Source: a virus (taxonomy: Duplodnaviria; Caudoviricetes). From it: 64,000 nt of DNA. The notes under the pieces are model-generated. The model was not told the DNA's origin, did not search any database, and saw only the letters and a program-made list of their open reading frames with translations. Positions 8,945 to 39,781 of this stretch are shown piece after piece. The first letter of the stretch is position 1; each line of letters starts with the position of its first letter. The position numbers were made by a program, and so were the translations under genes. The DNA lies in the IMG/VR virus record IMGVR_UViG_3300025713_000650, positions 64,001-128,000 of that record; one strand, 5' to 3'.

Positions 8945-11900
8945 TTAATCAATACTAATACCAATTGTTTTAAGATAGGCCTCTAATAATTTAACACTTT
9001 CTGGAGTTTGACATTCATCCTTTATTTCTCTTATAAATTCAGATCCAATCGAATCTCGAATATATTTATTTTTTAAATCAATTGAATCTGATTTCGTTGT
9101 TGTCATTTCTGTTAAATTAGTTAGACCCGCATGAGATATAAAACAAAATGTTTCCATTTCACCAGATCTTTGACCACCTTTATTTTTTCTACCACTGGGT
9201 GGTTGCATTGTTTTTCTCATATAAGGACCTATGCCTCTAGCTGCCAAACGTTCTTCAGCTATATGTACCATTCTAAAGAAATACATGTAACCTAATGCAA
9301 CTTTACTTATAATTTTTTGTTTTGATATCTCATCAAAAATATCATATCTAAATTCTGTATTTGTAAATTCACATGCCTTTTTAATTTGATCACAAGTAGA
9401 AGATTCAAAAGGTGGAGCTATAATATAGAAATTTTCTATAAATTTTTCATCTATAATAGAATTATTTAATTCTTCTTTAACTTGTAATGTGTACCAATTA
9501 TCTTTTGTATTATCTAAAATCTTAATATAATCTAAAATATACCCTTTTAACTCATCTTGACTTAATTCTTTATTATTTAACATTTCATTTAATTTAATTT
9601 TAAAATCATTTACAGACATACCCATATGTAATTCAAAAATCTGACCTACGTTCATTCTTGAATATGTTGATAATGGATTTATAATAATATCTACATGTTT
9701 TCCATCTTCTGTTTTGGGCATTAAATCATGGGGTAAAATTTTTGAAATAACACCTTTGTTTCCATGTCTATTTCCAATTTTATCACCTATTTGTATTTTT
9801 CTACTAAAAAATCCACCTATTTTTATATAAATACCATTAATTCTTTCACCTTTAAATTTAAATCTTCCTCGATTATTAAATCTATCTAATCCTTTTTCTC
9901 TAATAACTTCAATTGCTTTTTTCTTTGAAAATAATTTAAAAATTAATTCTTGAATTTTTTTATTATATGATATTTGACTCTCAAACTTTTTATCAACCCA
10001 ATGTCTAAATTGAGGTATTATATTATTATATTCATTTGGATAAATTTCAACATTTGTAATCAAAACATCTTTGTTATAAATTAAAGGAATATTTTCTTCA
10101 AAAATAGATAAATAATTCATTGGATCATTAGGAATATCTTTCATAATAGCATAAGGATTACCTTTTAAAATTAATTCTCTTTTATGTTTTCTATAATATG
10201 CTTTATCTTTTCCTGGCTCTGAAAATTCTATATCGGGATTTGGTTCAGGTAATGGTTTATACCTATTTTCATCTAAACTCAATAATAATTTATCTGGAGG
10301 TAAAACAAATGAAAGATTTGCATAATGAATTGATGTAAACGAATCATCATTTAATAATCTATCTGAAATTACAATTGCGTCTTCATAATTATATCCATAA
10401 AAAGGCATTATCGCAGTAAGAAGATTTTTTCCGATGTTAATGCTTCCATTTTTACAAAAATTACTCTCTGCGATTATATCTCCCTCTGAAACTTTATCAC
10501 CTAATTTAACATATACATGCATAATATCCATATTTTTTACATAAATATGTCTATTATCTATATCAAATATATCATAATCATTATCTTTATATGCAATAAT
10601 TACAAATTTTGAATCTAGATAAATTACTTCTCCATCTTTTTTTGCCCTTTTAATAAATTGGGTCTTATCAGTATATAAATTTTCACAACCAGATTGAATT
10701 AAAGGAACATCAAATTCAGAAAGATTAATAGCCTGTCTCATTTGTGACGCTGACATTTGTAATCTTGTTTGATCATCGTGTTCTAAAAATGGAATCATAG
10801 AAATAGCTACGGATGTTGGATTTTTTTCACATATTTCTTCATTAAAACGCATATTCTCATCATATTTTGTTGAAGGTAATAAACATTGCAATACACCACA
10901 ATTATCTCTATCAGATGTATCTACTGGACATATTCTTCCAAACATACTATCCGATAAATCTCTAAGATAATGTGGTACATTTGCTTTATTAAAACCACCA
11001 GGACCAACTAATGTAATTCTCGATAATTTTGTAAGCTCATCAATAGGATTAATTGAAAAATCAAACTGAACAATATCTGATAAATTACAATTAGCAAGAA
11101 TTTTCTTTGAATTAATATTAAATTTTATTTTTGATTTTCTACTTGATATACATAAATCATAAACATTCTTCATTATTGTTGACAGCACAACATATTCAAA
11201 ACATCTAATTCTTTTATTTGTATAATCTAAATCATCAATACTTTTATTATTTTTTAAAATATCTGTTAATTCATCTAAAACATTATCAAATCTCATAAAT
11301 TTGGAAGTGATAATATCAATTTTAGGGATCAATGATAAAGCATATGCAATAATTTCTCCTGTTTTCTTTTTATCATATTTAGTAAAATATTCACCCAGAT
11401 ATTCTTGATAATCAATATTATCTACATAATATGCATATAAATCAAATAATAATTTTTCATAATCTGTTTGAGGGTTATCATTAATAATATATTCATTTAA
11501 ATTAAATTTATTAACAATATAATCTGAATCAAAAGAAGCAAAATATACTAATGCAAATGGAATTTCTTTACCCATGAATGATAATTTAATATAAGGGTGT
11601 TTTTTTCCAGAAATAATTAAAATTGTTGATAAATTTGATCTAAATTTAATGTTTTTACCTCTTGTTACAATTGGAATATCATATAATTGAAATAATGGAA
11701 TTTTTCTTTTACCTGCAATTGAAAAATAATTACCATCAATTAATTTTGGAATATAAACACTCAAATCAATTTCTTGAGTATTTCTTTTGAATTTTATAAT
11801 GATATTTTTCTTTAAAGTTTTTTCAACTTCAGAAGAAGGTGATTCTTTAATATCAAATTCTGAAAGTATAAGACCAGCATCTTCTGCCGGTCTTAGTATT

Positions 11901-12001
11901 TCTCTAATATTCACCATTAAATTATTATATTCTTTTTCTCGTATATTAAATATATTTTCTTTGTTTTGAATTGAATAATTTGGATTCTTAATTCTCATCA
12001 A
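8945..12001 (-). CDS. rpoB: Multisubunit RNA polymerase beta-like subunit (set 1)
   Basis: GRICPVDT, PFLEHDD..R..M...QMRQA, GYNYEDAI, GDKIGNRHGNKGVI, SRMNVGQ, GGQRSGEME. Confidence 0.95.
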   Translation of the reverse strand: MMRIKNPNYSIQNKENIFNIREKEYNNLMVNIREILRPAEDAGLILSEFDIKESPSSEVEKTLKKNIIIKFKRNTQEIDLSVYIPKLIDGNYFSIAGKRKIPLFQLYDIPIVTRGKNIKFRSNLSTILIISGKKHPYIKLSFMGKEIPFALVYFASFDSDYIVNKFNLNEYIINDNPQTDYEKLLFDLYAYYVDNIDYQEYLGEYFTKYDKKKTGEIIAYALSLIPKIDIITSKFMRFDNVLDELTDILKNNKSIDDLDYTNKRIRCFEYVVLSTIMKNVYDLCISSRKSKIKFNINSKKILANCNLSDIVQFDFSINPIDELTKLSRITLVGPGGFNKANVPHYLRDLSDSMFGRICPVDTSDRDNCGVLQCLLPSTKYDENMRFNEEICEKNPTSVAISMIPFLEHDDQTRLQMSASQMRQAINLSEFDVPLIQSGCENLYTDKTQFIKRAKKDGEVIYLDSKFVIIAYKDNDYDIFDIDNRHIYVKNMDIMHVYVKLGDKVSEGDIIAESNFCKNGSINIGKNLLTAIMPFYGYNYEDAIVISDRLLNDDSFTSIHYANLSFVLPPDKLLLSLDENRYKPLPEPNPDIEFSEPGKDKAYYRKHKRELILKGNPYAIMKDIPNDPMNYLSIFEENIPLIYNKDVLITNVEIYPNEYNNIIPQFRHWVDKKFESQISYNKKIQELIFKLFSKKKAIEVIREKGLDRFNNRGRFKFKGERINGIYIKIGGFFSRKIQIGDKIGNRHGNKGVISKILPHDLMPKTEDGKHVDIIINPLSTYSRMNVGQIFELHMGMSVNDFKIKLNEMLNNKELSQDELKGYILDYIKILDNTKDNWYTLQVKEELNNSIIDEKFIENFYIIAPPFESSTCDQIKKACEFTNTEFRYDIFDEISKQKIISKVALGYMYFFRMVHIAEERLAARGIGPYMRKTMQPPSGRKNKGGQRSGEMETFCFISHAGLTNLTEMTTTKSDSIDLKNKYIRDSIGSEFIREIKDECQTPESVKLLEAYLKTIGISID

Positions 12002-12030
12002 ATATCCTCTTTTTTTATTTTTTTATAATT

Positions 12031-15000
12031 TTAAATATTTGTTTTCCTACCTAATAACATATTATCTAAGATACCAGAATATAAACCTTCATTAGATATA
12101 CCCCGTAAAAGATTCTTTTTCTGATTTGAAAATCCAAATCCCAATAACCATGATTCTTTACTTGGAATTGTTAAAATGCTAATAAATTCTGGAGAATAAT
12201 TGTTTCTATCTTTTAATAATCTCCATTTTTTATTACCATACCACATTAATTGAGAAACTACTGATTCAAAATGAACATAATGTATTTCTTTTGAATAATT
12301 ATAAATTTTAAATAATTTTTCAATCAATTCTTCACAATTTAAATCTTTATTTGAATGTAATAATTTAGATACAGATGATAAATCGCTAATAATATCTTCT
12401 TGTAACATATCCTCGCTACCCTTTTTAGTAATAGCTGCTCCCGAGTTATGTATAAATATTCCTGCCTTCAATGCAAAATTAGGATACTCTGAATCAACAG
12501 TTAAATCATAAAATTCTTCATATTCTGGTAAATCTATAAATTGTATATTTTTAACAAATCTATTATTTTTAATAAAATATCTGAATGACATTCGTTCAAT
12601 AAATTTTCCATTTTTGTTTTCTAATTTTGATTTATTTTTTCTATAGATTGGCATTAATTGATCATTAACTTGTAAATCTTTTGCTTCTTTGGAAGTTCCA
12701 TCTTGCATAATAAATTTATGATCTAATGTGCATTCAACTATTTCATCATTATCTAAAGTAACCTTAACCATTCTCTTTTCAAATCTATCTTTATAAGCAT
12801 TCACAATCTTGCTAATATATATGTCTCCTTCTGGAGAACAATTAAATGTATAAAAATCTTCACCATTTTTAACTTTGTCATAAACTTCTTGAATTTCAAA
12901 TGATTTATTATTAATATCTAAAATTCTTGTATTTTTTCTTAAACTCAAATGAAATGTGCGCAAAACTAACTGTGTAGATGCTTCACCTAAACTTTGAGCT
13001 GCAATCATTCCTATAAATGGTGAATGTAATATTTTATGTAAATCACCATAACACCTTTTACAAACCTTTTCACTTTTACAAAAAATAGGACTTCTAATTT
13101 TAATATTTTTACCAATTATATTCTTTAAATTATCATTTGTAATTAATTCTTCATTATCTCCATTTAAATAAAATTTATATAAAAGACATTTTGCCTTTTT
13201 CTCATCTTCAACGAATACATTTAGATAATCTTCAGTCCCACAATCATCAAGATTTGAATCTAATATTAAATTACAACATGCAAATGCAAGCTGTCTTGAT
13301 AAATAACCTGAATCTCCTGTATTTATTGCAACGTCTAAAAGACCTTTTCTGCAGCCATAACTTGAATTGAAAAATTCATATTGAGTTAAACCTTCAACTA
13401 AATTATTTTTAACTGGTGTTTCAATAATTTTTCCTGAAAAATTTGAGATAAATCCTCTTGATAATAATATCTGTCTTACCTGTTCCCATGTTCCTCTAGA
13501 ACCAGAATCTATGACATATGAATACATAAATTTATTTCTTAATTCATTTTCAATTTCTTTACTCGCTAATTCATTTAACTGTTCTCTAGAAGTATTTTTT
13601 GAATAGATTGTTTCTTTCAATTCATCAACATTATCAAGAATTAAACCATCTAAAGATAAAGTTGTTCCATATAATGTTGAATATTTATAACCTATCATTT
13701 TAATATCATCTAAAATCTTAGATGTAATTGTATAATCATATTTATCATTAATATCATTTAATAAATTAATAAGCTTCTTTTTATTAACAGGATCTTTTAT
13801 AATAGGATAATCTTCAGGTAAACATTCATTAAATATTTTTAAACTTTCTGTTATTTGTTCATTTTTATATTCAATCTGTTTATTTAATTCAGGAATCATA
13901 TTATTTGTTAAAATATAAACTCCTAAAATAATATCTTGAGAAGGAGTTGCTGATAGTGATATATTTGCAGGATTATATAAATTCTTAGTAAATAAGAATT
14001 TATCTAAAACTTCTTCTTTTGATTCTTTACTTATTGGTAAATATATTGCCATTTGATCTCCATCAAAATCTGCATTAAATCCCGCACATGCTAATGGATG
14101 AATTTTTATTACTTTATCAGTATTCATTTTAATCTTAAAACCTAATAAACTTAATCTGTGCAAAGAAGGTTGTCTATTTAATAAACAAACTTCATCCTTG
14201 ATTACTTCTTCACAAATAGAAATCAAATTTAATTTATCCATTTCAATACACTCATCTATATAATCAACAGCTTCATTTTGAAGTTTAAAGTGATTATAAT
14301 CTATTAATTTTTTTGAAATTTGTAATTTATATAATTCTAAAATCATTACATAAGGTAATGAACATTCGTCGATATCTATTACAGGATCAGGTGTAATTAT
14401 AGCTCTTCCTGAAAAATCTATCCTTTTACCTAATATATTTCCACGAATCAAACCCTCTTTTTTAGATAATTTATCCAAAATAAATTCATATAATGTATTA
14501 ACTAATTTTTGTAATTGTTTAAAATACATATAATATATTTCTTTTTTATTAAGAATATCTATATTTGTTTCTTCGATTGTTGCTTTATGATTTAAAAGGT
14601 GTGTATAATAACTATTTATTTCATCAGATTTCATTTGATCGTTTTTAGAACGAATTTTTGATGTTGGTCTTAAATCAGGAGGTAAAACTAAAACTTCATT
14701 GATCATTAAACTATCTATATGATCATTAATATATTTCCAATCAGGAATATCTATTAATTCTTCTGATAACCATGTTACTAATTTTATAATAGCCTCTGAT
14801 TTTTCATATTTTTTAAATTTTTCTGGAGGCCATTTTTCGTCATTTTCTTCAACTACAAAATGATTATTTTCTTCGTCAACATATAATGATGATTTTTCAT
14901 TTTTAATTAACAAATCTAATGGCTTTTTTATTTCACTTTTTCCTAATGAAACTAATAAATCATAAAAAATAGGATTTACAACAGGAATAGGTAAAATAAT

Positions 15001-15240
15001 TTTTGCAAATCTTTTTCTTCTTTCACGATTAGATGTAATATCAACATGACAAACAGGACATTTTTTATTTGAATTAGAAGGACCCCAATAAATTTCACAT
15101 TGACAAATATAATTTTTTAATGGACCAAAAATCTGTTCTGAAAAAAGACCATCTTTATGAAAATTTTTTTTATCTAAAATTTTTGATGTTTTAACTTCTT
15201 TAATTATCTTTATAAATTCCCTATTTATCAGTTTCGGCAT
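12031..15240 (-). CDS. rpoC: Multisubunit RNA polymerase beta'-like subunit (set 1), intein-containing
   Basis: GLFSEQIFGP, CQC...CPVC Zn site, PPDLRP, GKRIDFSGRA, NRQPSLH, catalytic NADFDGDQMA, RKGLLDVAINT..SGYL.R, TQLVLRTFH. Confidence 0.95.
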   Translation of the reverse strand: MPKLINREFIKIIKEVKTSKILDKKNFHKDGLFSEQIFGPLKNYICQCEIYWGPSNSNKKCPVCHVDITSNRERRKRFAKIILPIPVVNPIFYDLLVSLGKSEIKKPLDLLIKNEKSSLYVDEENNHFVVEENDEKWPPEKFKKYEKSEAIIKLVTWLSEELIDIPDWKYINDHIDSLMINEVLVLPPDLRPTSKIRSKNDQMKSDEINSYYTHLLNHKATIEETNIDILNKKEIYYMYFKQLQKLVNTLYEFILDKLSKKEGLIRGNILGKRIDFSGRAIITPDPVIDIDECSLPYVMILELYKLQISKKLIDYNHFKLQNEAVDYIDECIEMDKLNLISICEEVIKDEVCLLNRQPSLHRLSLLGFKIKMNTDKVIKIHPLACAGFNADFDGDQMAIYLPISKESKEEVLDKFLFTKNLYNPANISLSATPSQDIILGVYILTNNMIPELNKQIEYKNEQITESLKIFNECLPEDYPIIKDPVNKKKLINLLNDINDKYDYTITSKILDDIKMIGYKYSTLYGTTLSLDGLILDNVDELKETIYSKNTSREQLNELASKEIENELRNKFMYSYVIDSGSRGTWEQVRQILLSRGFISNFSGKIIETPVKNNLVEGLTQYEFFNSSYGCRKGLLDVAINTGDSGYLSRQLAFACCNLILDSNLDDCGTEDYLNVFVEDEKKAKCLLYKFYLNGDNEELITNDNLKNIIGKNIKIRSPIFCKSEKVCKRCYGDLHKILHSPFIGMIAAQSLGEASTQLVLRTFHLSLRKNTRILDINNKSFEIQEVYDKVKNGEDFYTFNCSPEGDIYISKIVNAYKDRFEKRMVKVTLDNDEIVECTLDHKFIMQDGTSKEAKDLQVNDQLMPIYRKNKSKLENKNGKFIERMSFRYFIKNNRFVKNIQFIDLPEYEEFYDLTVDSEYPNFALKAGIFIHNSGAAITKKGSEDMLQEDIISDLSSVSKLLHSNKDLNCEELIEKLFKIYNYSKEIHYVHFESVVSQLMWYGNKKWRLLKDRNNYSPEFISILTIPSKESWLLGFGFSNQKKNLLRGISNEGLYSGILDNMLLGRKTNI
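12445..12945 (-). mobile_element. Mini-intein (167 aa, Ser1, no endonuclease) in the beta' trigger loop
   Basis: RTFHL|SLRKNTRILD...VECTLDHKF (block B TxxH)...FYDLTV...NFAL..GIFIHN|SGAA. Confidence 0.9.
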
Positions 15241-15304
15241 TCATATCTCCTATGTAAGATTTTTCTTATTATATCCTTAATAAAAAATAAAAACAATATT
15301 TTAT

Positions 15305-15336
15305 AAGGAGGAGGTATTATATAATACCTCCCCCTT
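15305..15336. terminator. Perfect 22-bp palindrome / probable terminator
   Basis: ggaggtattatataatacctcc at 15310-15331, between 15346..15549 and the beta' gene. Confidence 0.65.
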
Positions 15337-15345
15337 TTCTTGACT

Positions 15346-15549
15346 TTAATATCTTAATGATTTTAATCTTTCAATTTCTTGATTCTTACCTTTTATTATA
15401 TTTTCTAGTCTTTTGATTTGTATATTTTTCAATCTTATTTTTTCTAATAAGACATTATCAATAATATAATTTTCATGTCTTAAACTTAGATCTTTTTTAT
15501 CTGAATTATCAATTAAACTTTCAATAATGATTTGCCTACATTTTATCAT
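15346..15549 (-). CDS. Hypothetical protein
   Basis: 67-aa ORF abutting the upstream ORF. Confidence 0.55.
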   Translation of the reverse strand: MIKCRQIIIESLIDNSDKKDLSLRHENYIIDNVLLEKIRLKNIQIKRLENIIKGKNQEIERLKSLRY

Positions 15550-15741
15550 TTAATCTTTAGGATTTATTTTTTCATGTTTCTCAATAATTTTAATTAATTC
15601 AGAATCTGTTAATTCACAAATATCTTTATTCAATCCTTTTACTAATTTAAGAAGATTAATAATAAAAACGGATAATATTCTTTGTGATAATGTGGTCCTA
15701 TACTTTTCTTCAAAAATGTTTTTGGATAAGAAATCACTCAA
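15550..15741 (-). CDS. Hypothetical protein
   Basis: 63-aa ORF, GAGG RBS. Confidence 0.55.
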   Translation of the reverse strand: MSDFLSKNIFEEKYRTTLSQRILSVFIINLLKLVKGLNKDICELTDSELIKIIEKHEKINPKD

Positions 15742-15835
15742 AATAAATTCCTCGTGTTTTTATCTTATTTTAATAATATCAGGATGTTAATTAATAGTTT
15801 TTGTAAAGAACTTTTTTTAAAAAAATTATTAAAAT

Positions 15836-16141
15836 CTATTTTATTTCAATTTTATATTCAATGTTATCAATAATTGCTTTATATGCATTATTTGTTAAAA
15901 TTAATCTCCAACCATTATTTTCAATATCATAAACTCTTATTCGATCATTCTTAATATCTTTTATAATTCCTCTAATATTTAATTTTTTAGGATGCATTTC
16001 TTTTGGAATTCTTTTAAAATCTAAAATACAGTCCATTACTCTTTTACTTCCATCTTTCTTAATAAAAAATATAATACATTTTTTAGATCTTCTAATCATT
16101 CTAAATAATTTAAATGTAGTTTTAATCTTTTTATCTAGCAA
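15836..16141 (-). CDS. WYL_2/DUF2693-like SH3-fold protein
   Basis: FIKKDGSKRVM...IP...VYDIENNGWR signature; strong GGGAGGTG RBS. Confidence 0.75.
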   Translation of the reverse strand: MLDKKIKTTFKLFRMIRRSKKCIIFFIKKDGSKRVMDCILDFKRIPKEMHPKKLNIRGIIKDIKNDRIRVYDIENNGWRLILTNNAYKAIIDNIEYKIEIK

Positions 16142-16173
16142 TACAAATCACCTCCCTTCTTTTTATTTTTCAA

Positions 16174-16190
16174 TAATTAATATATATAGA
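16174..16190 (-). promoter_or_regulatory. Conserved phage promoter-like motif TCTATATATATTAATTA (copy 1)
   Basis: Identical 17-mer at 27232-27248 and 31776-31792; each is intergenic and upstream of a strong RBS. Confidence 0.75.
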
Positions 16191-16195
16191 AAATA

Positions 16196-17212
16196 TCAAG
16201 AACGTTTTTCAGAATGTAATAAATCATCTAATTTTGAATCATCCCTAGATAAGAGATCCGAAAACAACATACAAGTCCAATTACATCCTTTACAATAATA
16301 TTTATAATCATTTTCAAAATTCATTTTATATAATTCAGATACATTATAATTTTCATCGAAAACATTTTCTATTGTATTATATGTCGGACAATATGAACCT
16401 TGTATTCTTAAACAACATCTAATCGAACCATCTGCATCAACTGTTAAATTATGAATATTTTTATTATCTTCATAACATTTTAAATTAGATGGTAATATAT
16501 CATAAATTTTATTATAAATCAAATCTTTCATATGAACATTTAAATTTTCATCTAAAATTCTTTTTAGAATTTCTTTTAATTCTTCTGTTGGATAAACTAA
16601 ATTTTCACTAGATTTAACATTTGAAAAATCATAATATTCTGATTTTGCAATATCAAGAAATGTAATACTACTTGATATATCATTATCTGTTAAAATTTTT
16701 ACTAAATTATATAAATTATTAATTGTATTTTTATCAACAGTTATTTCAGCAACTAAATCTTTTACATATTTTTTAAATTTTATTAAACCAAGTAAACCTT
16801 TATTACTTTTAATAGTAATATCATCTTTTTTATTAAGTAAAATATAAGGATCTACAGATGATGTTAAACCCTGAAGGTAACCAACATCATAAATAAGTTT
16901 TTCAATTCTTTTTTGAATTATATCTGTATTATTTGTAATTATAGTATAATTAATATCATTAAAATTACAATATCTAATAATTTCAGCTAAATCATTTCTT
17001 AACAAAGGTTCACCACCATACCATATTACAAAAGAATTTGGATTATGTTTTTTTAATTTTTCAAGAAATTTTATTACTCTTTCAGTATTTACTTCATTTT
17101 CATAAAAATGCTTCAAACGATTATTTGTATTTCTTGCAATTCCACAATAAGAACACCGAAGGTTACACCTTCTAGTTAAAAGAAAATTAACAATTTGAAT
17201 TGTATCTTTCAA
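16196..17212 (-). CDS. Radical SAM protein with C-terminal Cys cluster (SPASM/twitch-like)
   Basis: CNLRCSYC, YGGEPLLR, ITN, DADGSIRCC, CKGCNWTC. Confidence 0.9.
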   Translation of the reverse strand: MKDTIQIVNFLLTRRCNLRCSYCGIARNTNNRLKHFYENEVNTERVIKFLEKLKKHNPNSFVIWYGGEPLLRNDLAEIIRYCNFNDINYTIITNNTDIIQKRIEKLIYDVGYLQGLTSSVDPYILLNKKDDITIKSNKGLLGLIKFKKYVKDLVAEITVDKNTINNLYNLVKILTDNDISSSITFLDIAKSEYYDFSNVKSSENLVYPTEELKEILKRILDENLNVHMKDLIYNKIYDILPSNLKCYEDNKNIHNLTVDADGSIRCCLRIQGSYCPTYNTIENVFDENYNVSELYKMNFENDYKYYCKGCNWTCMLFSDLLSRDDSKLDDLLHSEKRS

Positions 17213-17228
17213 ATTATTTCTCCTTTAT

Positions 17229-17507
17229 TTACATTAATTGAATTGAACTTGTCATTTTAACATATTCTTTATAAAGATCATCTGGTGGTATAAAAGGAAA
17301 AATTAATATTTTATTTTTATTTATTTTTATAATATCATCTTTTGGAGTCATAATAGGTGTTGGTGCTAATTGAAAATTTCCACCTTGAGTCATAACAGGA
17401 GTCATCAAAATAGGTTTGGAAAATTCTATAAATTCTTCACATTCTTTGGTTACTTCTCCAATAATGTAAGAAAATGGTGCTATGACAATAACTTTAATTT
17501 CTCTCAT
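17229..17507 (-). CDS. Hypothetical small beta-rich protein
   Basis: 92-aa ORF with AAGGAG RBS. Confidence 0.7.
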   Translation of the reverse strand: MREIKVIVIAPFSYIIGEVTKECEEFIEFSKPILMTPVMTQGGNFQLAPTPIMTPKDDIIKINKNKILIFPFIPPDDLYKEYVKMTSSIQLM

Positions 17508-17520
17508 TATATTCTCCTTT

Positions 17521-19731: not shown

Positions 19732-19733
19732 AT

Positions 19734-26792: not shown

Positions 26793-26828
26793 AAAAAAGA
26801 AGACCAAATTAATAGGTCTTCTTTTTTT
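26793..26828 (-). terminator. Intrinsic terminator
   Basis: aaaaaagaagacc-N9-ggtcttctttttt. Confidence 0.8.
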
Positions 26829-26833
26829 CTCAC

Positions 26834-27199
26834 CTAACAATTTTCACTAAATAAACCGTTAATAAAACGAATCGTTATGTCATTTAATTTAGGAATCAAC
26901 TCAATTGTTGACTCCCTAAATTTAGTTCCAATGGGGGATTTCATGAATAGAAGAATTTCTTCCAGATCATCCTGTGAATAATACTGCTGAAATGTTTGAG
27001 AAAATAATGCAACATAATCCATTTCGTCTATGCTGCCTATTTTTTCTTTTATTAATTCAGTTTCCTCTTTACTAATCTCCCCACTTGTAACTTGCCATTT
27101 AATTATAGAATCCAAACTTGAGTGTGTTGACTCCATTAATCCAATAACATCTAAAAACTCCAAAAGTGTTTCGTTAAATGTTCTTGATGTTTTTTCCAT
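26834..27199 (-). CDS. DUF2059-domain protein
   Basis: YYSQDDLEEILLFMKSPIGTKF matches the DUF2059 Y...ft..El..l..Fy.Sp.G.k pattern. Confidence 0.75.
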   Translation of the reverse strand: MEKTSRTFNETLLEFLDVIGLMESTHSSLDSIIKWQVTSGEISKEETELIKEKIGSIDEMDYVALFSQTFQQYYSQDDLEEILLFMKSPIGTKFRESTIELIPKLNDITIRFINGLFSENC

Positions 27200-27231
27200 A
27201 AAAGCTCCCCTTTCATTTTATTTTTATTCAC

Positions 27232-27248
27232 TAATTAATATATATAGA
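27232..27248 (-). promoter_or_regulatory. Conserved phage promoter-like motif TCTATATATATTAATTA (copy 2)
   Basis: Exact repeat; sits between a terminator and the GGGGAG RBS of 26834..27199. Confidence 0.75.
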
Positions 27249-27272
27249 AAAAAATTAATTCAAAAAAATTAA

Positions 27273-27309
27273 AAAAAATGTAAGAAAATTTAAAATTCTT
27301 ACATTTTTT
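27273..27309 (-). terminator. Intrinsic terminator
   Basis: aaaaaatgtaagaa-N9-ttcttacatttttt. Confidence 0.75.
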
Positions 27310-27319
27310 AAAAAAATTT

Positions 27320-31024: not shown

Positions 31025-31697
31025 TAATTGTCTCCTTCTTTGTCTTTTTTACAATATTGGGAATTAGGTACCACTCGGCCTTATATTTTTTATTATTTTC
31101 TGAATTTATAACATTATAAGGATTAATTACAATAGAAAATTCTTCATTAAACCAACAACAAAATCTTTTATTTATAAATGTATTTGAATCTATTTCTGTT
31201 TTCTTTAAAATTCTTGGAAAAATAACGGATGAATCGGGATTATAAACGGTTATTGGTAATAATCTCTTTACTTTTTCCTCGGTTATCTCATCTTTTATTA
31301 ATTTCGTATGAGAACAATAAATTATAATAAGCTTATCATTTAATGTTTTGAAAATTTCATTTTTATAAAGATAACAATCCATATCTGAAATATATAATAC
31401 TGAATTTGCATTCATTACACGTTTTATAGATCTATGTTGTCTACAAACATTATTTGTCTTTTTACATACATCACAATCATAATTATCAATTTTAAATTTT
31501 AATTTATTTTCTTTTGTGAAACAATTTTTAATCCATTCTTTACAAATTAATAATTTAACTAATGTAATAGGATAGACATCGACATTTAACTCGGTAATTA
31601 AATTTTCCAATGAAATAGAATTATTAATAATAGTTCTAAAATTCGATTCTACTATTCTTACCATGTTTCCTCCATTTTGTCTTAATAATTTAGACAT
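31014..31697 (-). CDS. Hypothetical protein with Cys/His cluster (start more likely ATG at 31664)
   Basis: CDVC...VCRQH; GGAGG precedes the MVRIV start. Confidence 0.7.
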   Translation of the reverse strand: MSKLLRQNGGNMVRIVESNFRTIINNSISLENLITELNVDVYPITLVKLLICKEWIKNCFTKENKLKFKIDNYDCDVCKKTNNVCRQHRSIKRVMNANSVLYISDMDCYLYKNEIFKTLNDKLIIIYCSHTKLIKDEITEEKVKRLLPITVYNPDSSVIFPRILKKTEIDSNTFINKRFCCWFNEEFSIVINPYNVINSENNKKYKAEWYLIPNIVKKTKKETINEV

Positions 31698-31775: not shown

Positions 31776-31792
31776 TAATTAATATATATAGA
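31776..31792 (-). promoter_or_regulatory. Conserved phage promoter-like motif TCTATATATATTAATTA (copy 3)
   Basis: Exact repeat; downstream TGAAAAATAAA...AAGGGAGGTG is shared with copy 1. Confidence 0.75.
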
Positions 31793-32050: not shown

Positions 32051-32643
32051 AATTTCTCTCCCTTCTTAATAATTTCTTCAATAATTAATGTTTTATTTTT
32101 TTGCATGTTTTTAAAACAAAAATCAATAATATTTTCTTTATTGTTTTCTTGAAGAAATTTTCTCTGAAAATAATTATTATATTTATATTTTTCAAAAATA
32201 AATATTTCAATTTTATTCCATATATTTAAAAAAAATTCTTTAACAAATTTAGTTTTAAAATCAATATTTAAATTAATTAAAAGATCAGTAAAAAATTCTA
32301 CATTATCATATTCTAACCATTCTAAAAATTGTAAAAGTTTATCAAAATCTGATTCAGATGTACAATCAATCAAATTAACAAAATTAAAATTATAAACTTC
32401 TTGAACTTTTTGAATTATCTTTCTACTTAATTCTAATTTATCTTCTAATTTATATTGTTTTATAAATATAAAACAATTTGAATAAACTTCCTTAAAGTTC
32501 TCTTTGCCTATACTATCCAATAAATTATTATTATCATATTCATTACTAGACATTTCAACTAAATTTTTATCATCATCTTCTTCAATTTCTAATGTTGGAG
32601 ATGATTGTTTTATTAATGTTTTAATATTTTCTTCACCTATCAT
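32047..32643 (-). CDS. Hypothetical protein
   Basis: 198-aa ORF translationally coupled (ATGA) to the beta-like gene. Confidence 0.7.
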   Translation of the reverse strand: MIGEENIKTLIKQSSPTLEIEEDDDKNLVEMSSNEYDNNNLLDSIGKENFKEVYSNCFIFIKQYKLEDKLELSRKIIQKVQEVYNFNFVNLIDCTSESDFDKLLQFLEWLEYDNVEFFTDLLINLNIDFKTKFVKEFFLNIWNKIEIFIFEKYKYNNYFQRKFLQENNKENIIDFCFKNMQKNKTLIIEEIIKKGEKL

Positions 32644-35600
32644 AATAATTTCCTTTCATCTAACATTAGAGCATTAAAATATGCATCTAATTGTTCCCTA
32701 GCTAAAGATTGTTTTGTATATTTAAATGATGTATTCCCTTGTTGTATAATTTCAGATATCATTTCATTTTGAGATGATCTATCATCAGATAAAGGACCCA
32801 TCATTTCAGATAATAAATGTACTGCATTATAAGATAATGTTGCTATAGTATCGGCCTCTCCAAACCTTTGACCACCTTCTAATTTTTTACCACCAGTGGG
32901 TTGTTCTAATCTTGTTAATTTACCCGTTGATCTTGCATGAATTTTTAATTCAGCAATATGTTCCAACTTACTAATATAAGAATATCCCACCGGAACTTTA
33001 TGGTGTGTTTTTATATTGTATTCTGGAAGATATAAATTATATCCAGATTGTAAATTTAAAACTTTCATTACAGATTTTATCTGATTTAAATTTGGTGATT
33101 GAAAAGGAATAAAAACAAGAGGGAAAAATCCTCTTTCAACAATAGATTTAATAAATATTTTATATTGATTATCACTTAGATTTGAAATATTATTAATAAA
33201 TCTTGTAGAAAATTCTTTATTTTTACTATTGTCAAATAATGTCAATACTTTTTTCAATAAAGAAATAACATTAGTTCTAGAATTATTTTTAGTAATTCTT
33301 AAAGCTAAATCCTTAGATATTAATCCTGAATATAATTCAAATAACTGACCAATGTTCATTCTTCCAATAATACCAACGGGATTAAGTACAATATCTAATT
33401 TTTCTCCCCATGGTGTTCTTGGCATATTTTCGTCTTTTTCAACTAAAGAAATAATACCTTTATTTCCATATCTACCTGTTAATTTATCACCTAAACCTAT
33501 TTTAAATTCCTGTTGAACTTTAAATTTAATCAAGATACCTTTAATTAATTTACCTTTTACATAAAATTTATCTTTTGGTAATAATCCATATCTTTCTCTT
33601 GTTCGATCAATCAAATATTTAATTTTTGGAAATTTATTATCTCCAATATTAGTATATATTTCAATATCTACAACAACACCACCGGGACTCTTCTTTATTA
33701 TATCTTGTCCTATTCTACTTATAGTTTCATCTTCTTCATAACCTAATAATTCTTCAATTGTACCTACTGTTTTTTTTATTAAAGGTTCTCCTTTTTTTGT
33801 ACTTGAACCAATGTCAATTATTTCTAAAATTCTATCTTTTTCCTCAACTAAAACTTCTTCAATAATAGCATGTAAAGATGTTAATTTATCTTCCTTTATT
33901 AATTTTTCGTTTATAACAATACCATCTTCAAAATTATATCCTTTATATGGCATATATCCAATAAGAAAAGATCTACCTAAACAAAGACTTCCATCCTTAA
34001 TACCACTACCTTCTGCTAATATTTGACCTTTTTGTACAACCTGATTAGTTTTTACAACCGGTATAAATACGCTTAATGTGTCTCTTCCAAATCCAGATTT
34101 TAAATGAATTGGTTTAATATCTATATTGTGTTTTTTTCCTTTTTCATCAGAAACTAAAATAAAATCTCGATTAATCTCTAAAATTCTACATTTAAATGGA
34201 GCTTTTTTAATAAAACTATTAGATAAATATTCAGAAACAATAGATTCATAACCAGATAAAACAATAGGTGGTTCTGGATTTTTTAGTGGTAAAGCCTGTT
34301 TCATCTGTGCACAAGACATCATTATCCTAGCACCATCATTATTTTCAACAAATGGAATCATAGAAGAAGATACTGATAAAATTCCAGATCCCTCAGTATC
34401 ACTTATTTTTTTATCTTTAAATAATCCTCTTGCACTTGTTATAAGAGCATTTACAGCTAATTGTTGATTTACACCTATATTTTCACCTTCGGGTGTATCA
34501 ATTGGATCAATATTACCATAATAAGAAGGGTGAACATTTCTCATTTCAACTTGAATTGATTCTTTACTTGGTACACCACCTAAATTTTTACCTACGGGTG
34601 TAATTTTAGTTATAGCTGCTAATTCCTCAATTGGATTTGCAAATTCTAATGTTGAGACAATTTCTGAATTAATAAATGCTGATAATGTTGCAGTTGGATT
34701 AATTTCAAATTTTGCTTTTTTATTTCCAGATAAAACTTGTTCTTTATATTTTGTATATTCTGCTAGTATTTGTTTTTGAATTAAATGAATTAAAACCTCA
34801 GAACCTCTTATTCTTTGATTTTTTAAATCATTCCTATCATCAACCTTTCCTTCAATAACCTTCAAAGACATATATTTCATTATTTTATCTAATTCATATG
34901 GTAAATTTTGATTGATTAAAACTTGCTTAACTACAGGATCAACAATATTTTCAAGATTTAATGAGATCATATATGTTGAATGTCGTATCCCTGTTATAAA
35001 GATTATAAGATCATTAAAATATTCATTTTCTCCAAAATTTTTATCTGATTCAAATTCTTCAAATTTAACAGTAAGAAGAGAATTAAATAATTGTTTTTTT
35101 AATTCAGAATTAATATTTGTAAAATATAAATACTTATCTTTATTTATTTGAATTACTTTATCTTGATCTTTTGGATTTTCCTCCGATATATTATATTTAA
35201 GATCAAATAATGTCATTGTTTTATCAAATCCAAAAGTAAACCACATTAATATGATTAAAGGTATTTTGTAATTACCCATAAAAATTCTAAGATATCTTTC
35301 GTTTTTATACTTTAAACTTTCTATATGAAATGCTGAATATGAACTGGTAAATCTTGAATCATATGGTTTTGGAAAACTTATTGGACATAATATTATTTGA
35401 TTAACAAGATATTTTGTTTCACCATTTAATTTAAATGTTCCGGTTTCGGGATTTATTTTAGGAACCTCAATAGAAACAGTATGGTTATTATTAAACATAT
35501 CTTTTAATTCAACTTTAACAACATTTAAATCCGATCTATTTATTTCTCCAGGTCTTTCTTTTTTATCTTCAATTACAATGTCTTGAATTTTAAGCTTAAT

Positions 35601-36770
35601 ATCTTTTTTCTCTAAAGTTTTAAACGAATTTGTTAAATCTTTTTTAAAGTTATAGCTAAAATCAACAATTCTTTTTTGATATAATTGAGATGGATTTTTA
35701 TCGCCTATTTGTTTTTCAATATCCATTGTTTCTATCACTTTATCTGATGATAGTGATTTCGTTTTTTCTTTTACTAATAACTCGTCAACATATTCTTTTT
35801 CAACTTTTTTCAAAACTTTGTTTGTTTTGTTATCTGGTATTGTTTTAGTAACATTTTTTGAAATTTTTAAATTATTTGTATTTTTATATATAACAGACTG
35901 TATTGCTGTCTTTTTAATAATTGGATCATTTTTATCAGCTTTAATTATTTTCTTTGCTAATGTTTTTTCTTTATTTAATAAATCATTTACGCTAGTCTTT
36001 ACCTTTTCTACATTTTTAGATAATAAATCTTTTTTTGTATTATCTATAACTTTTTTTGTAGCATGTTTAATAATTTCTTCATCTTCTCGATCATCAACAT
36101 CAACTCCATCTTCTTCATCTTCTTCATAACTACCTTTATATTTTAAGCTTTTTAAAATTGGAAATATTCTTTCAAAATTTACTTGCTTATTTTTTACTAA
36201 TAATCTATACTTCACACCTTTTTCAGTTATTAATGTTAATAAAAGATGGTCAAAATCAAAATCTTGCTTTTTAAGATCTCTTATAAATAAATAAAATTTT
36301 CTATTTACCCAATTCTTATTAAATGGTTTTGTTAAATCAATACAATACATCAAAACTTTTTCATAATCTGCAAATTGATAAAAAGCATTTTCAACATTTC
36401 TTTTTATCAAAACACCAGATCTTGTTCTATAATTACTTGGTTTATATAATTCATCAATAGTAGAAGTATAGATAGATGTATCATAAAGAAGACTTCTTTT
36501 GGCTGGTGGTTTTTGATTATGTTGAAATGGATATATTTTTAATGATCTGTATGCTGTTTTTAATTTTGTCGTTAGGAATGTAACCGGTATTTTTGTTCTT
36601 GGAATAATAACATTTCTAACATCAATTTTTAAAATATTTAATTTTTCATAACACTCTAAAAGTGTAGTATTTTCAGAGAAAAATACTAAAATATAAGGAT
36701 TTTTCTTAAATAACCATCTAATTGCATTTACTACATGAGTATATTGTCTTAAATTTTTAAATTGTATCAT
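32640..36770 (-). CDS. rpoB: Multisubunit RNA polymerase beta-like subunit (set 2) with long N-terminal extension
   Basis: VHPSYYGNIDPIDTPEGENIG, PFVENNDGARIMM...QMKQA, GYNFEDGI, GDKLTGRYGNKGII, GRMNIGQ, GGQRFGE. Confidence 0.95.
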   Translation of the reverse strand: MIQFKNLRQYTHVVNAIRWLFKKNPYILVFFSENTTLLECYEKLNILKIDVRNVIIPRTKIPVTFLTTKLKTAYRSLKIYPFQHNQKPPAKRSLLYDTSIYTSTIDELYKPSNYRTRSGVLIKRNVENAFYQFADYEKVLMYCIDLTKPFNKNWVNRKFYLFIRDLKKQDFDFDHLLLTLITEKGVKYRLLVKNKQVNFERIFPILKSLKYKGSYEEDEEDGVDVDDREDEEIIKHATKKVIDNTKKDLLSKNVEKVKTSVNDLLNKEKTLAKKIIKADKNDPIIKKTAIQSVIYKNTNNLKISKNVTKTIPDNKTNKVLKKVEKEYVDELLVKEKTKSLSSDKVIETMDIEKQIGDKNPSQLYQKRIVDFSYNFKKDLTNSFKTLEKKDIKLKIQDIVIEDKKERPGEINRSDLNVVKVELKDMFNNNHTVSIEVPKINPETGTFKLNGETKYLVNQIILCPISFPKPYDSRFTSSYSAFHIESLKYKNERYLRIFMGNYKIPLIILMWFTFGFDKTMTLFDLKYNISEENPKDQDKVIQINKDKYLYFTNINSELKKQLFNSLLTVKFEEFESDKNFGENEYFNDLIIFITGIRHSTYMISLNLENIVDPVVKQVLINQNLPYELDKIMKYMSLKVIEGKVDDRNDLKNQRIRGSEVLIHLIQKQILAEYTKYKEQVLSGNKKAKFEINPTATLSAFINSEIVSTLEFANPIEELAAITKITPVGKNLGGVPSKESIQVEMRNVHPSYYGNIDPIDTPEGENIGVNQQLAVNALITSARGLFKDKKISDTEGSGILSVSSSMIPFVENNDGARIMMSCAQMKQALPLKNPEPPIVLSGYESIVSEYLSNSFIKKAPFKCRILEINRDFILVSDEKGKKHNIDIKPIHLKSGFGRDTLSVFIPVVKTNQVVQKGQILAEGSGIKDGSLCLGRSFLIGYMPYKGYNFEDGIVINEKLIKEDKLTSLHAIIEEVLVEEKDRILEIIDIGSSTKKGEPLIKKTVGTIEELLGYEEDETISRIGQDIIKKSPGGVVVDIEIYTNIGDNKFPKIKYLIDRTRERYGLLPKDKFYVKGKLIKGILIKFKVQQEFKIGLGDKLTGRYGNKGIISLVEKDENMPRTPWGEKLDIVLNPVGIIGRMNIGQLFELYSGLISKDLALRITKNNSRTNVISLLKKVLTLFDNSKNKEFSTRFINNISNLSDNQYKIFIKSIVERGFFPLVFIPFQSPNLNQIKSVMKVLNLQSGYNLYLPEYNIKTHHKVPVGYSYISKLEHIAELKIHARSTGKLTRLEQPTGGKKLEGGQRFGEADTIATLSYNAVHLLSEMMGPLSDDRSSQNEMISEIIQQGNTSFKYTKQSLAREQLDAYFNALMLDERKLL

Positions 36771-39700
36771 TATCGTCTCTCTACTATTTTTCCAGTTAGT
36801 ATTTTTTCTATCATAGAAGGTGGTAATTCTTGATCTGAAGTCAACCCAACCTTTATTGCTTCACCTATATTTTCAAATGCTAAACCTTGTAAGAAACTTG
36901 TAGAAAAAACATTCTTCTTGATGTTTAATAATGTTGGATCAAATGGATTAGAACCTAATCTTGCTGGTATCATTACATTTTTTTTATCTCTCATACATTG
37001 AGATAATAAAACTTCAAGATGAACAAGATCGAAGTTACTTAAATTTTCATAAACTTTATATAATTTTAAAAATAAATGATTATTATCTTTAAAAATTTCT
37101 TTACCAGATAATATTCTTTTAAGATAAAGAATACTTTCTTTTATTTCTTGATATTCAATAGGAACATCTAAAATTAAATCACCTTTTTTATATTCAATTA
37201 TTATCTTTTTATCTGTTTTGGTTAATTCATTATAAAATATTTTTACAGAATAATCCAAAATCACATCAAATTCAATATTATCTGCAGTAACAATACATAA
37301 CAAACCTTTAAGATATATATTTCTTTCATTTTCATTAATAAATAAATTTGAATTTTCAGTATAATCTGATAAATCTAATTTTAATTTAAATTCTATATTA
37401 CAATACAATTTCTGATCTGTTTGTTTAAAATATTTATTTACAATATTAGACTTTAAATTAACATTATTATTAATTATTTCTTTTAAAATATCTCGTTTAA
37501 TTAGACTAATTGCTCCACCTTTATGAAAGGTTCTCATAATATTCTGAGTTCCACTTTCACCAACTACTTGAGCTGCATACATTCCAACAAATGGTGTACC
37601 ATGTCTTTCTAACAATCTTCCATAACACGTATGACATATTTTAGGACTTTCACAATAAATTGGAGATCTTAATTGAATTATATCTCCAGGTTTAAATTTA
37701 GACTTATTAAATTCAACAACTTCATCATTTATCTTTATATATCTACCAGTTAAACGAGAAATTATATCTTTTGTTAATTTAACTTCTAAACAATTTTTAG
37801 TTCCACAATCTTTTAAAAATAAATCTAATTCCACAGAATTTAATAAATAAATTAATTGTCTTGTAGTATAACCTGTTTCAGCTGTATTTAAAACTCTATC
37901 AATAATTCCTTTTCTTGCACCATAAGAAACATTAAAATATTCAGTTGGTTTTAGACCCTCAGAAAGTGAACTTTTAATTGTTGGTAAAATATTTCCTTGT
38001 GTATCTGCAATAATACCTTTGGCTATTAATATTTGTGTTGGTTGATCCCATCCTTTTGTTGAACCAGATTCTACTAAATCATATAACCCCGTATCTTTTA
38101 AATGATCAATCATCATTAATTTCATTTCATTTAAAAGTTTTGATGCTTCTTCGGTTGATGCATTTTGTAGTTTCTTTTTTAATCTATAAATTTTTTCAGG
38201 AATTTCTAAATCATCAAGAGTTATTGAGGGTGAAAAAAGCGTAGCAAATTTAAAAGCATATTTCTGCAGGTTAAAAGATGTCTTTAAAATAGTTTCTCTA
38301 TCATATTTATTAGTTAATTTTAAAAATAATTCATTAATTTCTTTTTTAGTTATTAATTTATCAACAAAAGTAAAGTTTGAAGGGAAACAACTATTAAAAA
38401 TTGCTTTTCCTAATGTTGTTCTTTTATTTTTATAGATTGTAGGTATTGTTGGATCACTATATTTATCTCTTTCACTAAGATTAAATGTTATTGGTGATTT
38501 TCTTGATGAATAATCTTTTGTTAAAATATATAAACCGGCACAGGCTTCTTTTGATAATGCAAATCCTAAAGAATATGAAGATGTTGATGAAACTAATTTT
38601 GTCATCTTTTTAGCGTCTTCTTGTGCTTCATTTGATAAAGGATGAAAAATAGCCATTTGGTCTCCATCAAAATCGGCATTAAAACCACCAACATCTAAAT
38701 TTGAAATTCTTACTGTATTTCCTTCTATAAGAATTGGAGTAAAAGCTCTTACTGATTCTGGGTGTAATACGGGATCTCTCTTTGCTAAAACTAAACGATC
38801 TTTCATAGATGTTTCTGTTATGTCATAAAAAATTTTATATAATTTAGGTGGTATATAATCACCATTCTTAATTGATGTCATTATTTTTTTAATTGTATCA
38901 ATTGATACTTCTTGTTTTGTAAAATTTTCAATTTCTTTTCTAATTATTTCTTTTCTTTCAATAGGTGAATATAAAATTAAATGTAAAATAAATGGCTCAA
39001 AAAGTGAAATAGCCATTTTAAAAGGTATTCCTATTTCATCACCTCTTAATTCTGGTCCGCAAGAAATAACAGCTCTACCTGAATAATCAACACGCTTACC
39101 TAAAATACTAGATCTTATTAAACCATATTTATGAGAAATTTTTTCTCTAGTAAATTCATCTAAATCATTTACAGATTTTTGAATATTAAAATTTAAAATA
39201 TCAAAAAATGGTGATTTTACATCTATTGGTTTAATTGATATACTTCTAGTAATTAGAGAAGTATAAAAATTATTCATTTTATCCTGAATCCATCTTCCTT
39301 CATTATCTTTATATATTGGTCTAAAATCAGGAGGAACAACTGGAATTTTATCTACAAATAAGGTTCCTTGTTTAAATGCACCTTTAATCATATCTGATAG
39401 TTTTTTTCTTTCTGGTGTGTGTTCTCTAAAATTAATATTAGGAAAAATCTTTATAAAATTATTAATTCCGTTTATACCCTTTTCATCCTCTTGTAAAATA
39501 CCATTTGTATCTAAATTAAAAGTTTTTTCAACAGATATAAAATCAATTATTTTTCTATCCAATTGCTTCAAAATCTTAAATGCAGTAGGATGAATAATTT
39601 TACAATTTAATTCTATATATGAATAAGTATTTGTTCTTAAAGAGCTACCTAAAGGACCAAATATAATCTCTGAGAAAATTCCGCCTTCATGAAATTCATC

Positions 39701-39781
39701 AGATTTTGTAACTGTTGTTGACGTTTTAACTGGCTTTAAATTCTTACAAAAATTATTTACATCCATTAATTTAATTAACAT
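36770..39781 (-). CDS. rpoC: Multisubunit RNA polymerase beta'-like subunit (set 2)
   Basis: GIFSEIIFGP, PPDFRP, GKRVDYSGRAVI, RDPVLH, NADFDGDQMA, ARKGIIDR..NTAETGY, TQNIMRTFHKGG. Confidence 0.95.
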   Translation of the reverse strand: MLIKLMDVNNFCKNLKPVKTSTTVTKSDEFHEGGIFSEIIFGPLGSSLRTNTYSYIELNCKIIHPTAFKILKQLDRKIIDFISVEKTFNLDTNGILQEDEKGINGINNFIKIFPNINFREHTPERKKLSDMIKGAFKQGTLFVDKIPVVPPDFRPIYKDNEGRWIQDKMNNFYTSLITRSISIKPIDVKSPFFDILNFNIQKSVNDLDEFTREKISHKYGLIRSSILGKRVDYSGRAVISCGPELRGDEIGIPFKMAISLFEPFILHLILYSPIERKEIIRKEIENFTKQEVSIDTIKKIMTSIKNGDYIPPKLYKIFYDITETSMKDRLVLAKRDPVLHPESVRAFTPILIEGNTVRISNLDVGGFNADFDGDQMAIFHPLSNEAQEDAKKMTKLVSSTSSYSLGFALSKEACAGLYILTKDYSSRKSPITFNLSERDKYSDPTIPTIYKNKRTTLGKAIFNSCFPSNFTFVDKLITKKEINELFLKLTNKYDRETILKTSFNLQKYAFKFATLFSPSITLDDLEIPEKIYRLKKKLQNASTEEASKLLNEMKLMMIDHLKDTGLYDLVESGSTKGWDQPTQILIAKGIIADTQGNILPTIKSSLSEGLKPTEYFNVSYGARKGIIDRVLNTAETGYTTRQLIYLLNSVELDLFLKDCGTKNCLEVKLTKDIISRLTGRYIKINDEVVEFNKSKFKPGDIIQLRSPIYCESPKICHTCYGRLLERHGTPFVGMYAAQVVGESGTQNIMRTFHKGGAISLIKRDILKEIINNNVNLKSNIVNKYFKQTDQKLYCNIEFKLKLDLSDYTENSNLFINENERNIYLKGLLCIVTADNIEFDVILDYSVKIFYNELTKTDKKIIIEYKKGDLILDVPIEYQEIKESILYLKRILSGKEIFKDNNHLFLKLYKVYENLSNFDLVHLEVLLSQCMRDKKNVMIPARLGSNPFDPTLLNIKKNVFSTSFLQGLAFENIGEAIKVGLTSDQELPPSMIEKILTGKIVERR

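Follow-up and report, generated by a model that had tools for sequence, protein, structure and literature searches.

Jumbo phages such as phiKZ, AR9 and PBS1 encode two paralogous beta/beta' RNA polymerases (RNAPs) per genome, a virion and a non-virion enzyme, with no alpha or sigma subunit found. In phiKZ and AR9 both subunits, beta and beta', are cut into four or five polypeptides that are scattered over the genome. Another group of phages, the multimeric-RNAP-encoding Caudovirales (mReC), comprises uncultured tailed phages with unsplit beta and beta' proteins of at least 800 amino acids (aa) that fall outside the cellular RNAPs (Weinheimer & Aylward 2020, PMC7481178). A 2020 review of jumbo-phage RNAPs treated mReC as "a distinct group" and regarded the origin of the virion and non-virion enzymes as untraceable, with one duplication set against two acquisitions. 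A 2026 review repeated that this choice is undecidable, and a comparative study from 2021 made the case for the split form being primordial. Here we analyse two RNAP operons, set 1 and set 2, in a 64,000-nucleotide (nt) stretch of tailed-phage DNA (Duplodnaviria; Caudoviricetes; positions 64,001 to 128,000 of IMG/VR record IMGVR_UViG_3300025713_000650), hereafter called the window. We show that the four genes are present and intact, that the two sets are conserved together, and that set 2 is specifically related to the virion RNAPs. The explanation we favour, and consider likely, is that the two sets represent ancient paralogous RNAPs, set 2 being the undivided counterpart of the phiKZ/AR9 virion RNAP and set 1 that of the non-virion RNAP, in a two-polymerase program modelled by analogy on those phages.

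A first-pass annotation, made from the letters of the window alone, had proposed two beta-like and two beta'-like genes, and Pfam domains agree with it for all four (Table 1). The NADFDGD motif is indeed intact in both beta' translations, the second Zn site was found in both of them as well, and the GDK...GNKG and ED motifs are present in both beta proteins. The positions of the open reading frames (ORFs) confirm that beta' precedes beta in each pair. In set 1 the two genes are spaced by 29 nt, with an AGAGGA ribosome-binding site ahead of the TTG start of beta, and in set 2 the start of beta overlaps the stop codon of beta' by 1 nt. Translations and alignment also bear out the reported difference at the N-terminus of beta', where the Zn ribbon (CQC...CPVC) is kept in set 1 and missing in set 2. 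Likewise, about 350 extra N-terminal residues do stand on set 2 beta, of which residue 432 (P0003) aligns with residue 80 of set 1 beta (P0001). The description of both pairs as complete and unsplit held only in part: each subunit is one ORF, but an in-frame 167-aa intein interrupts set 1 beta'. Between the sets, identity is 30% for beta' and 28% for beta. In PDB searches the best match of set 1 beta' was a bacterial beta' (310 bits), and set 2 beta' reached 220 bits against bacterial beta'. In this respect the window enzymes differ from those of phiKZ and AR9, being far closer to bacterial RNAP.

The pair is not confined to this window. At least 12 other contigs carry both sets. A scan of IMG/VR yielded 80 loci that split cleanly into set 1 and set 2 families, each showing about 50% identity to the copy in the window and always in the order beta' then beta, with eight contigs appearing in both lists. 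Exactly two beta' genes are found in each of five large records, two of which (312,420 and 277,131 bp) are rated complete with terminal repeats. In the 277-kb genome, 57-151 kb are collinear with the window, and the proteins share about 50% aa identity. It is also collinear, at about 88% DNA identity, with a sister contig (CAYYIP010000005.1; 136,291 bp; 22.9% GC) in which both sets are present. No alpha or sigma gene had been recognised in the window at first pass, and this stands for the 40 of its 59 ORFs that were scanned, none of which matched sigma-70 or alpha. Neither PF04542 (sigma-70 region 2) nor PF01000 (alpha) was found in the two complete relatives or the sister contig, omega not being part of that search.

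Such conservation bears directly on whether the pair might be an artefact, either a chimeric assembly or a case of one set being host rpoBC, both of which the first-pass annotation had named as dangers to its proposal. The sister contig was deposited within a metagenome-assembled genome (MAG) labelled "uncultured Hyphomicrobiales", where it looks mis-binned, and this placement of one close relative in a bacterial bin is all that speaks for an artefact. Against it, both sets co-occur with conserved synteny on at least 12 independent contigs, two of them with terminal repeats; GC content is uniform throughout the window (20-27%), as is strand, every ORF of at least 150 aa between 7 and 42 kb lying on the minus strand; both sets branch outside bacteria at 100% support; and the rpoC that belongs to the MAG itself is a different gene, of 1452 aa, on another contig. 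Because relatives carry both sets collinearly and the rpoC of the MAG differs, we take chimerism and host contamination to be ruled out, their joint probability being negligible. Duplication of one operon, also suggested at first pass, would in any case not be recent, given an identity of only 28-30% between the sets, each of which is kept at about 50% over a large clade.

The 277-kb relative is contig WOR52_10000459, which is listed in the tables of the mReC paper (PMC7481178), and the window phage is a new member of this published clade. Its beta and beta' proteins are single ORFs of at least 800 aa with NADxDGD (sizes in Table 1), and they branch apart from cellular RNAP with 100% support in a tree that holds only three bacterial sequences. 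Tailed-phage hallmarks (terminase, baseplate hub and virion protein) accompany its kinship to the listed contig. Genomes of the clade span 250-312 kb and carry T4-like replication and tail genes. The supplement of the same paper lists contig SMTZ23_10000109 twice, as "_a_" with a beta of 1362 aa and a beta' of 1005 aa and as "_b_" with 1007 and 904 aa (PMC7481178); these sizes correspond to set 2 and set 1, respectively. Its main text uses RNAP as a single marker and mentions no second enzyme, virion enzyme or phiKZ, and jumbo-phage RNAPs were excluded from its trees (PMC7481178). Our literature search found no paper describing an unsplit virion/non-virion pair. What appears to be new is to read the two mReC polymerases as the undivided forms that correspond to the virion and non-virion enzymes of jumbo phages.

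For assigning the sets to the jumbo-phage enzymes, BLAST against phiKZ gave only marginal matches and was set aside as too weak; profiles were therefore built from the IMG/VR relatives of each gene. The four clade profiles, one per gene, were searched against phiKZ, AR9 and Fusobacterium phage JD-Fnp1. In phiKZ, the set 2 profiles scored 122 bits on gp180, 106 bits on gp178 and 26 bits on gp80, as against 26 bits, no match and 15 bits for the set 1 profiles; all three proteins carry a head-protein annotation in the phiKZ record. In AR9, set 2 scored 175 bits and set 1 28 bits on the virion-type beta' N-terminal subunit, and the 932-aa virion beta N-terminal subunit was matched by set 2 (94 bits) and not by set 1. 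The AR9 non-virion beta N-terminal subunit gave the opposite result, with 74 bits for set 1 and no match for set 2. In JD-Fnp1, set 2 reached 230 bits on the 935-aa beta' (set 1, 57 bits) and 141 bits on the 1488-aa beta (set 1, no match). In a reverse test, PHROG families were mapped onto phiKZ genes and then scored on both sets. Set 2 is favoured by the virion families 2986, 2962 and 3148/14872, to which gp80, gp178 and gp180 belong. Set 1 is favoured by those of the non-virion proteins gp55 and gp74, namely 2987 and 3015, which are also the nearest PHROGs of set 1 beta'. Set 1 also matches the families of gp71-73.

The virion enzyme of phiKZ and AR9 resembles set 2 in two structural features, namely a beta' without the N-terminal Zn ribbon and a beta with a long N-terminal extension. 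In the alignment, the Zn-ribbon deletion has identical boundaries in set 2, in one lineage of relatives (L023_B) and in the virion subunits of phiKZ, AR9 and the Fusobacterium phage, and all of these have a flanking signature in common (...G-S-x-x-R...Y-I-x-L...H-P). The ribbon is retained in set 1, phiKZ gp55, bacteria and phages with a single RNAP. As for the extension of set 2 beta, it gave no Pfam match. An AlphaFold2 model of residues 1-450 (predicted local distance difference test, pLDDT, 83) found no fold match in the PDB by Foldseek, and ESM Atlas features stayed under a useful score. Meanwhile, the best match of the model in BFVD, a collection of predicted viral structures, was a 921-aa protein of PBS1 (E 1.9e-9 over 500 columns), which, because of its size and the kinship of PBS1 with AR9, we take to correspond to the virion beta N-terminal subunit of AR9. 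The next matches were proteins of 1393, 964, 1292 and 1463 aa. Judged by their length, these BFVD matches would be virion-type beta subunits, whereas the AR9 non-virion beta N-terminal subunit gave only E 0.076 over 108 columns. Profile scores, PHROG families, the Zn-ribbon deletion and the fold of the extension agree with one another. The first-pass annotation had anticipated a non-virion-like set 1 and a virion-like set 2, and on this sequence evidence it is probably right.

A beta' tree was computed from 32 rows and 875 columns under LG+C20+F+G4 by the posterior mean site frequency (PMSF) method with a quick search, and branches were supported by the Shimodaira-Hasegawa-like approximate likelihood ratio test (SH-aLRT); the three bacterial sequences served as a small outgroup, a scan of genome contigs having yielded a single locus. 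Further trees, including a concatenated beta'+beta tree, came from LG+F+G4 fast searches. Bacteria were separated from phages at 100% SH-aLRT, and set 1, set 2, the virion and the non-virion enzymes formed one clade at 99%, with the single-RNAP phages (Rhizobium Y65, Vibrio Va2 and Cobetia Carin-5) outside it. Within this clade set 2 joined the virion enzymes at 96%. The concatenated tree gave the same arrangement with weak support. Since set 2 matches the virion RNAPs in profiles, deletion and extension and set 1 matches the AR9 non-virion enzyme, the virion/non-virion duplication is most likely shared with the phiKZ/AR9 phages, a conclusion from sequence comparison in which we place fairly high confidence. 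The proposal at first pass of an independent two-polymerase program does not agree with these results, in which all four enzyme classes fall into one clade and set 2 has its deletion and extension in common with the virion RNAPs.

An independent duplication in the mReC lineage, after which one copy lost its Zn ribbon and gained an extension by convergence with the phiKZ/AR9 virion RNAPs, would offer another account. Approximately unbiased (AU) tests do not reject the tree that this account requires, with the two sets united in a clade apart from the virion and non-virion enzymes (p 0.297 for beta'; p 0.138 for beta'+beta). The Zn ribbon has also been lost more than once, the AR9 non-virion beta' being without it too, and for either set the scores with bacterial beta' are far above those with phiKZ proteins. 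However, the maximum-likelihood trees join the virion enzymes with set 2, the deletion boundaries and the flanking motif are identical, the structural matches of the extension are virion beta subunits only, and the profile scores are reciprocal, with set 1 alone matching the beta N-terminal subunit of the AR9 non-virion enzyme. We thus regard an independent origin as unlikely.

Together with the AU tests and the recurrent loss of the ribbon, several further observations weigh against a shared duplication and the assignment built on it. The higher non-virion profile scores of set 1 may be partly due to its slower evolution. Homology of the beta extension is backed by hhalign for residues 359-457 only. 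The grouping of set 1 with the non-virion enzymes received a support of 53 or lower, and long-branch attraction could affect the tree, the branches of phiKZ and AR9 being very long. Nothing was found for phrog_3209, the family of gp68 (the fifth subunit of the non-virion enzyme, which confers promoter specificity), in a search run without a positive control, and no exact copy of the promoter-like motif described below stands before set 2. The regions of greatest diagnostic value, the Zn-ribbon deletion and the beta extension, are left out of the trimmed alignments. In view of the AU tests, these trimmed regions and the long phiKZ/AR9 branches, the shared duplication is likely but short of proven.

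By analogy with phiKZ and AR9, set 2 would be made late, packaged, and injected with the DNA, whereupon it would transcribe the early genes. The set 1 operon would lie among these early genes, and set 1, after an intein had been spliced out of its trigger loop, would transcribe the middle and late genes. The packaging of set 2, its timing, its promoter assignment and the independence of the phage from host RNAP would all follow the same model. Candidate promoters for set 2 may be seen in a motif that occurs in the window as three exact copies of the 17-mer TCTATATATATTAATTA (Table 1). Its 16-mer core CTATATATATTAATTA, with one mismatch allowed, has 12 copies in the sister contig and 13 in the 277-kb relative; the latter differs in GC content (37%), and its proteins are only about 50% identical to those of the window, yet the 16-mer is conserved. 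Most of these copies are located 15-110 nt upstream of a small ORF that has a ribosome-binding site, and the 16-mer has TATATATTA in common with the annotated AR9 early promoter AATTATATATTAT. The first-pass annotation had placed set 2 behind a candidate late motif. This was not borne out, as CTATATATATTAATTA, which alone among the motifs is strongly conserved, lacks an exact copy there, precedes small ORFs and resembles the AR9 early promoter; it would better fit an early promoter that is read by an injected enzyme. No conserved motif stands directly upstream of either operon across the three genomes. A terminator-like hairpin separates the small upstream ORFs from set 1 beta' (Table 1), and a comparable one is found at the same place in the sister contig.

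The same data can be read with both polymerases acting only inside the cell, set 2 being an unpackaged second enzyme specialised in time or promoter, and early transcription being left to the host RNAP. T4-like replication and structural genes are present, and phages of the T4 type depend on host RNAP for transcription; neither a shell protein of the phiKZ type nor tubulin was found; and AT-rich DNA may hold sigma-70-like sites, although the counts of sigma-70-like promoters in the window are at chance level. On the other hand, set 2 has kept its virion-type features throughout the clade, neither a sigma nor a host-takeover factor was detectable in the relatives, and the 16-mer has been kept across very divergent hosts and GC contents, which points to a phage-borne enzyme that reads it from the start. 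We consider a purely intracellular role for set 2 quite improbable and continue with set 2 as the probable virion-type enzyme.

Apart from its polymerases, the clade has little in common with phiKZ. Tubulin (PF00091) was absent from the two complete relatives and the sister contig, and chimallin was found neither in a search with the one query phiKZ gp54 nor by phmmer, which is a weak test. Because tubulin and chimallin were not found, we do not place the clade in Chimalliviridae. No homologue of gp226 was found either, and phmmer of all phiKZ ORFs against the 277-kb relative returned little besides terminase and RNAP. The kinship of the clade to phiKZ is thus essentially confined to the polymerases.

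Comparison with cultured phages places the two sets between known arrangements. Fusobacterium phage JD-Fnp1 (180 kb) likewise has an unsplit virion-type beta' of 935 aa and a virion-type beta of 1488 aa with an N-terminal extension; in contrast to the window, its non-virion-type beta' is split (the N-terminal part has 490 aa) and its genes are dispersed, where the window has one ORF per subunit in beta'-then-beta operons. The unsplit virion-type beta' of JD-Fnp1 (L082:7902-10694) is annotated as "RNA polymerase subunit alpha". Phages with a single RNAP, such as Rhizobium phage RHph_Y65 (Kleczkowskaviridae), Vibrio phage Va2 and Cobetia phage Carin-5, also have an unsplit beta' with the Zn ribbon, and Carin-5 has the beta'-then-beta order. 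They differ in having one polymerase and in lying outside the clade in which the two sets group with the virion and non-virion enzymes. Carin-5 moreover carries an annotated sigma factor (L171:4799-5389) directly upstream of its operon, whereas none was found in the two-RNAP clade.

The insertion in set 1 beta' is a mini-intein in the trigger loop. Its junctions read RTFHL / S...TLDH...HN / SGAA, and all intein hallmarks are present: S766 as Ser1, TLDH as block B, a C-terminal HN932, and S933 at the +1 position. In the PDB, weak matches to DnaE mini-inteins were obtained. The insert is precisely absent in the sister contig, in which beta' has 902 aa and reads RTFHYSGAA, and we therefore take the intein as a recent mobile insertion. 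It must splice out for a working enzyme to be formed. Known mini-inteins (HINT, for example DnaE) and the inteins of archaeal RNAP subunits are alike in their Ser1, TxxH, HN and +1 Ser, in their length of about 150-170 aa, in the absence of an endonuclease domain and in the insertion in a catalytic motif. Here, by contrast, the intein resides in a phage beta', at a site in the trigger loop (RTFHx^SG).

Larger inteins occur in relatives, one turn upstream (R^T/SFH) and in the other paralogue, set 2 beta'. In two of them (L015, 781-4914; L020, 9986-14170), set 2 beta' ORFs of 1378-1395 aa hold in-frame inserts that end in HN just before (T/S)FH. A third (L022) has a set 2 beta' of 1420 aa with a comparably large insert, for which the junction was not found. 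In two others (L016, 10001-14023; L018, 9992-13925), set 2 beta' is cut about 25 residues past TFH into two ORFs (779/783 and 230 aa) that flank an inserted one. The inserted ORF of L016 shows an HNH-like motif by eye and has no Pfam match, and that of L018 is homologous to a homing endonuclease in the window (51415-53241) and to three AR9 ORFs that adjoin the AR9 virion-RNAP genes. In the L023 lineage (551-18136), both sets lie within 18 kb, with beta' unsplit and each beta in two ORFs. It is plausible that the split genes of L016 and L018, the set 2 inteins and the L023 lineage are snapshots of unsplit genes becoming the fragmented form seen in phiKZ and AR9.

On this basis we tentatively suggest, as a possibility that falls a little short of an even chance, that the clade keeps the ancestral undivided form of both jumbo-phage polymerases. 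A bacterial-like beta'-beta operon would then have been duplicated once in a phage ancestor, and the phiKZ/AR9 fragments would be later products of invasion by homing endonucleases and inteins, not relics from before the last universal common ancestor. Relatives with a trigger-loop cut in set 2 beta' would then show this process still under way. A widespread clade with both enzymes undivided and much less diverged bears on the origin of the fragmented enzymes. Sampling this clade together with the intermediates, namely L023, the Fusobacterium phages and the endonuclease-split relatives, would be a way to test ideas on that origin. According to the 2020 review, no virion RNAP had been purified. 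The window and its relatives offer two-polypeptide versions of these hard-to-reconstitute enzymes, which are suited to expression, structure and promoter studies, and the conserved 16-nt motif is a concrete candidate promoter.

PHROG scans of the window ORFs revealed a tailed-phage gene set, and the features with their coordinates are collected in Table 1.

Table 1. Polymerase genes, motifs and other features of the window, numbered from its first nucleotide.
Feature	Position	Strand	Details
Set 1 beta (P0001)	8945..12001	(-)	1018 aa, TTG start; Pfam Rpb2 domains 3, 6, 7
Set 1 beta' (P0002)	12031..15240	(-)	1069 aa; Pfam Rpb1 domains 1-5
Mini-intein in set 1 beta' trigger loop	12445..12945	(-)	167 aa, aa 766-932; Pfam PF14890, E 8e-14
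Set 2 beta (P0003)	32640..36770	(-)	1376 aa; Pfam Rpb2 domains 3, 6, 7
Set 2 beta N-terminal extension	35691..36770	(-)	about aa 1-360; alpha/beta domain (aa 1-215), then helical domain
Set 2 beta' (P0004)	36770..39781	(-)	1003 aa; Pfam Rpb1 domains 1-5
Terminator-like hairpin	15310..15331		palindromic, GC-rich; between small upstream ORFs and set 1 beta'
Motif TCTATATATATTAATTA, copy 1	16174..16190	(-)	exact 17-mer; upstream of small ORFs preceding set 1 operon
Motif TCTATATATATTAATTA, copy 2	27232..27248	(-)	inside RNA ligase cassette missing from sister contig
Motif TCTATATATATTAATTA, copy 3	31776..31792	(-)	downstream of set 2 operon, upstream of ORF 31014-31697
Large terminase	1692-3314		PHROG scan
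SbcCD nuclease	17521-20747		PHROG scan
T4-type topoisomerase II	22580-25668		PHROG scan
RNA ligase	25694-26767		PHROG scan
Baseplate hub	42430-43380		PHROG scan
Virion protein	62857-63570		PHROG scan
Helicase, UvsX-like recombinase	within window		PHROG scan

A nucleotide search of GenBank phages with the window gave no match, and the best protein identities in GenBank were at most 28%; since they never exceed this value, we conclude that the phage has no cultured close relative. Besides the intein of set 1 beta', other parts of the window differ from the sister contig. A cassette at 25690-27313, which consists of the RNA ligase gene, an ORF with DUF2059 and one copy of the promoter-like motif, is absent from the sister contig. 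A further difference lies in the region of the ribonucleotide reductase large subunit (53244-56426, minus strand; 1060 aa), in which HNH endonuclease matches cover about aa 345-455; this part is probably an intein with a homing endonuclease.

The set 1 operon is flanked by genes for FolE2, a GTP cyclohydrolase of type I (Pfam E 8e-64), and for a radical SAM protein (8058-8921 and 16196-17212, minus strand), which may be part of a pathway for 7-deazaguanine modification of DNA or tRNA. Finally, an ORF at 46568-47422 on the minus strand matches a PHROG labelled "CRISPR/Cas system associated" (E 2e-24).

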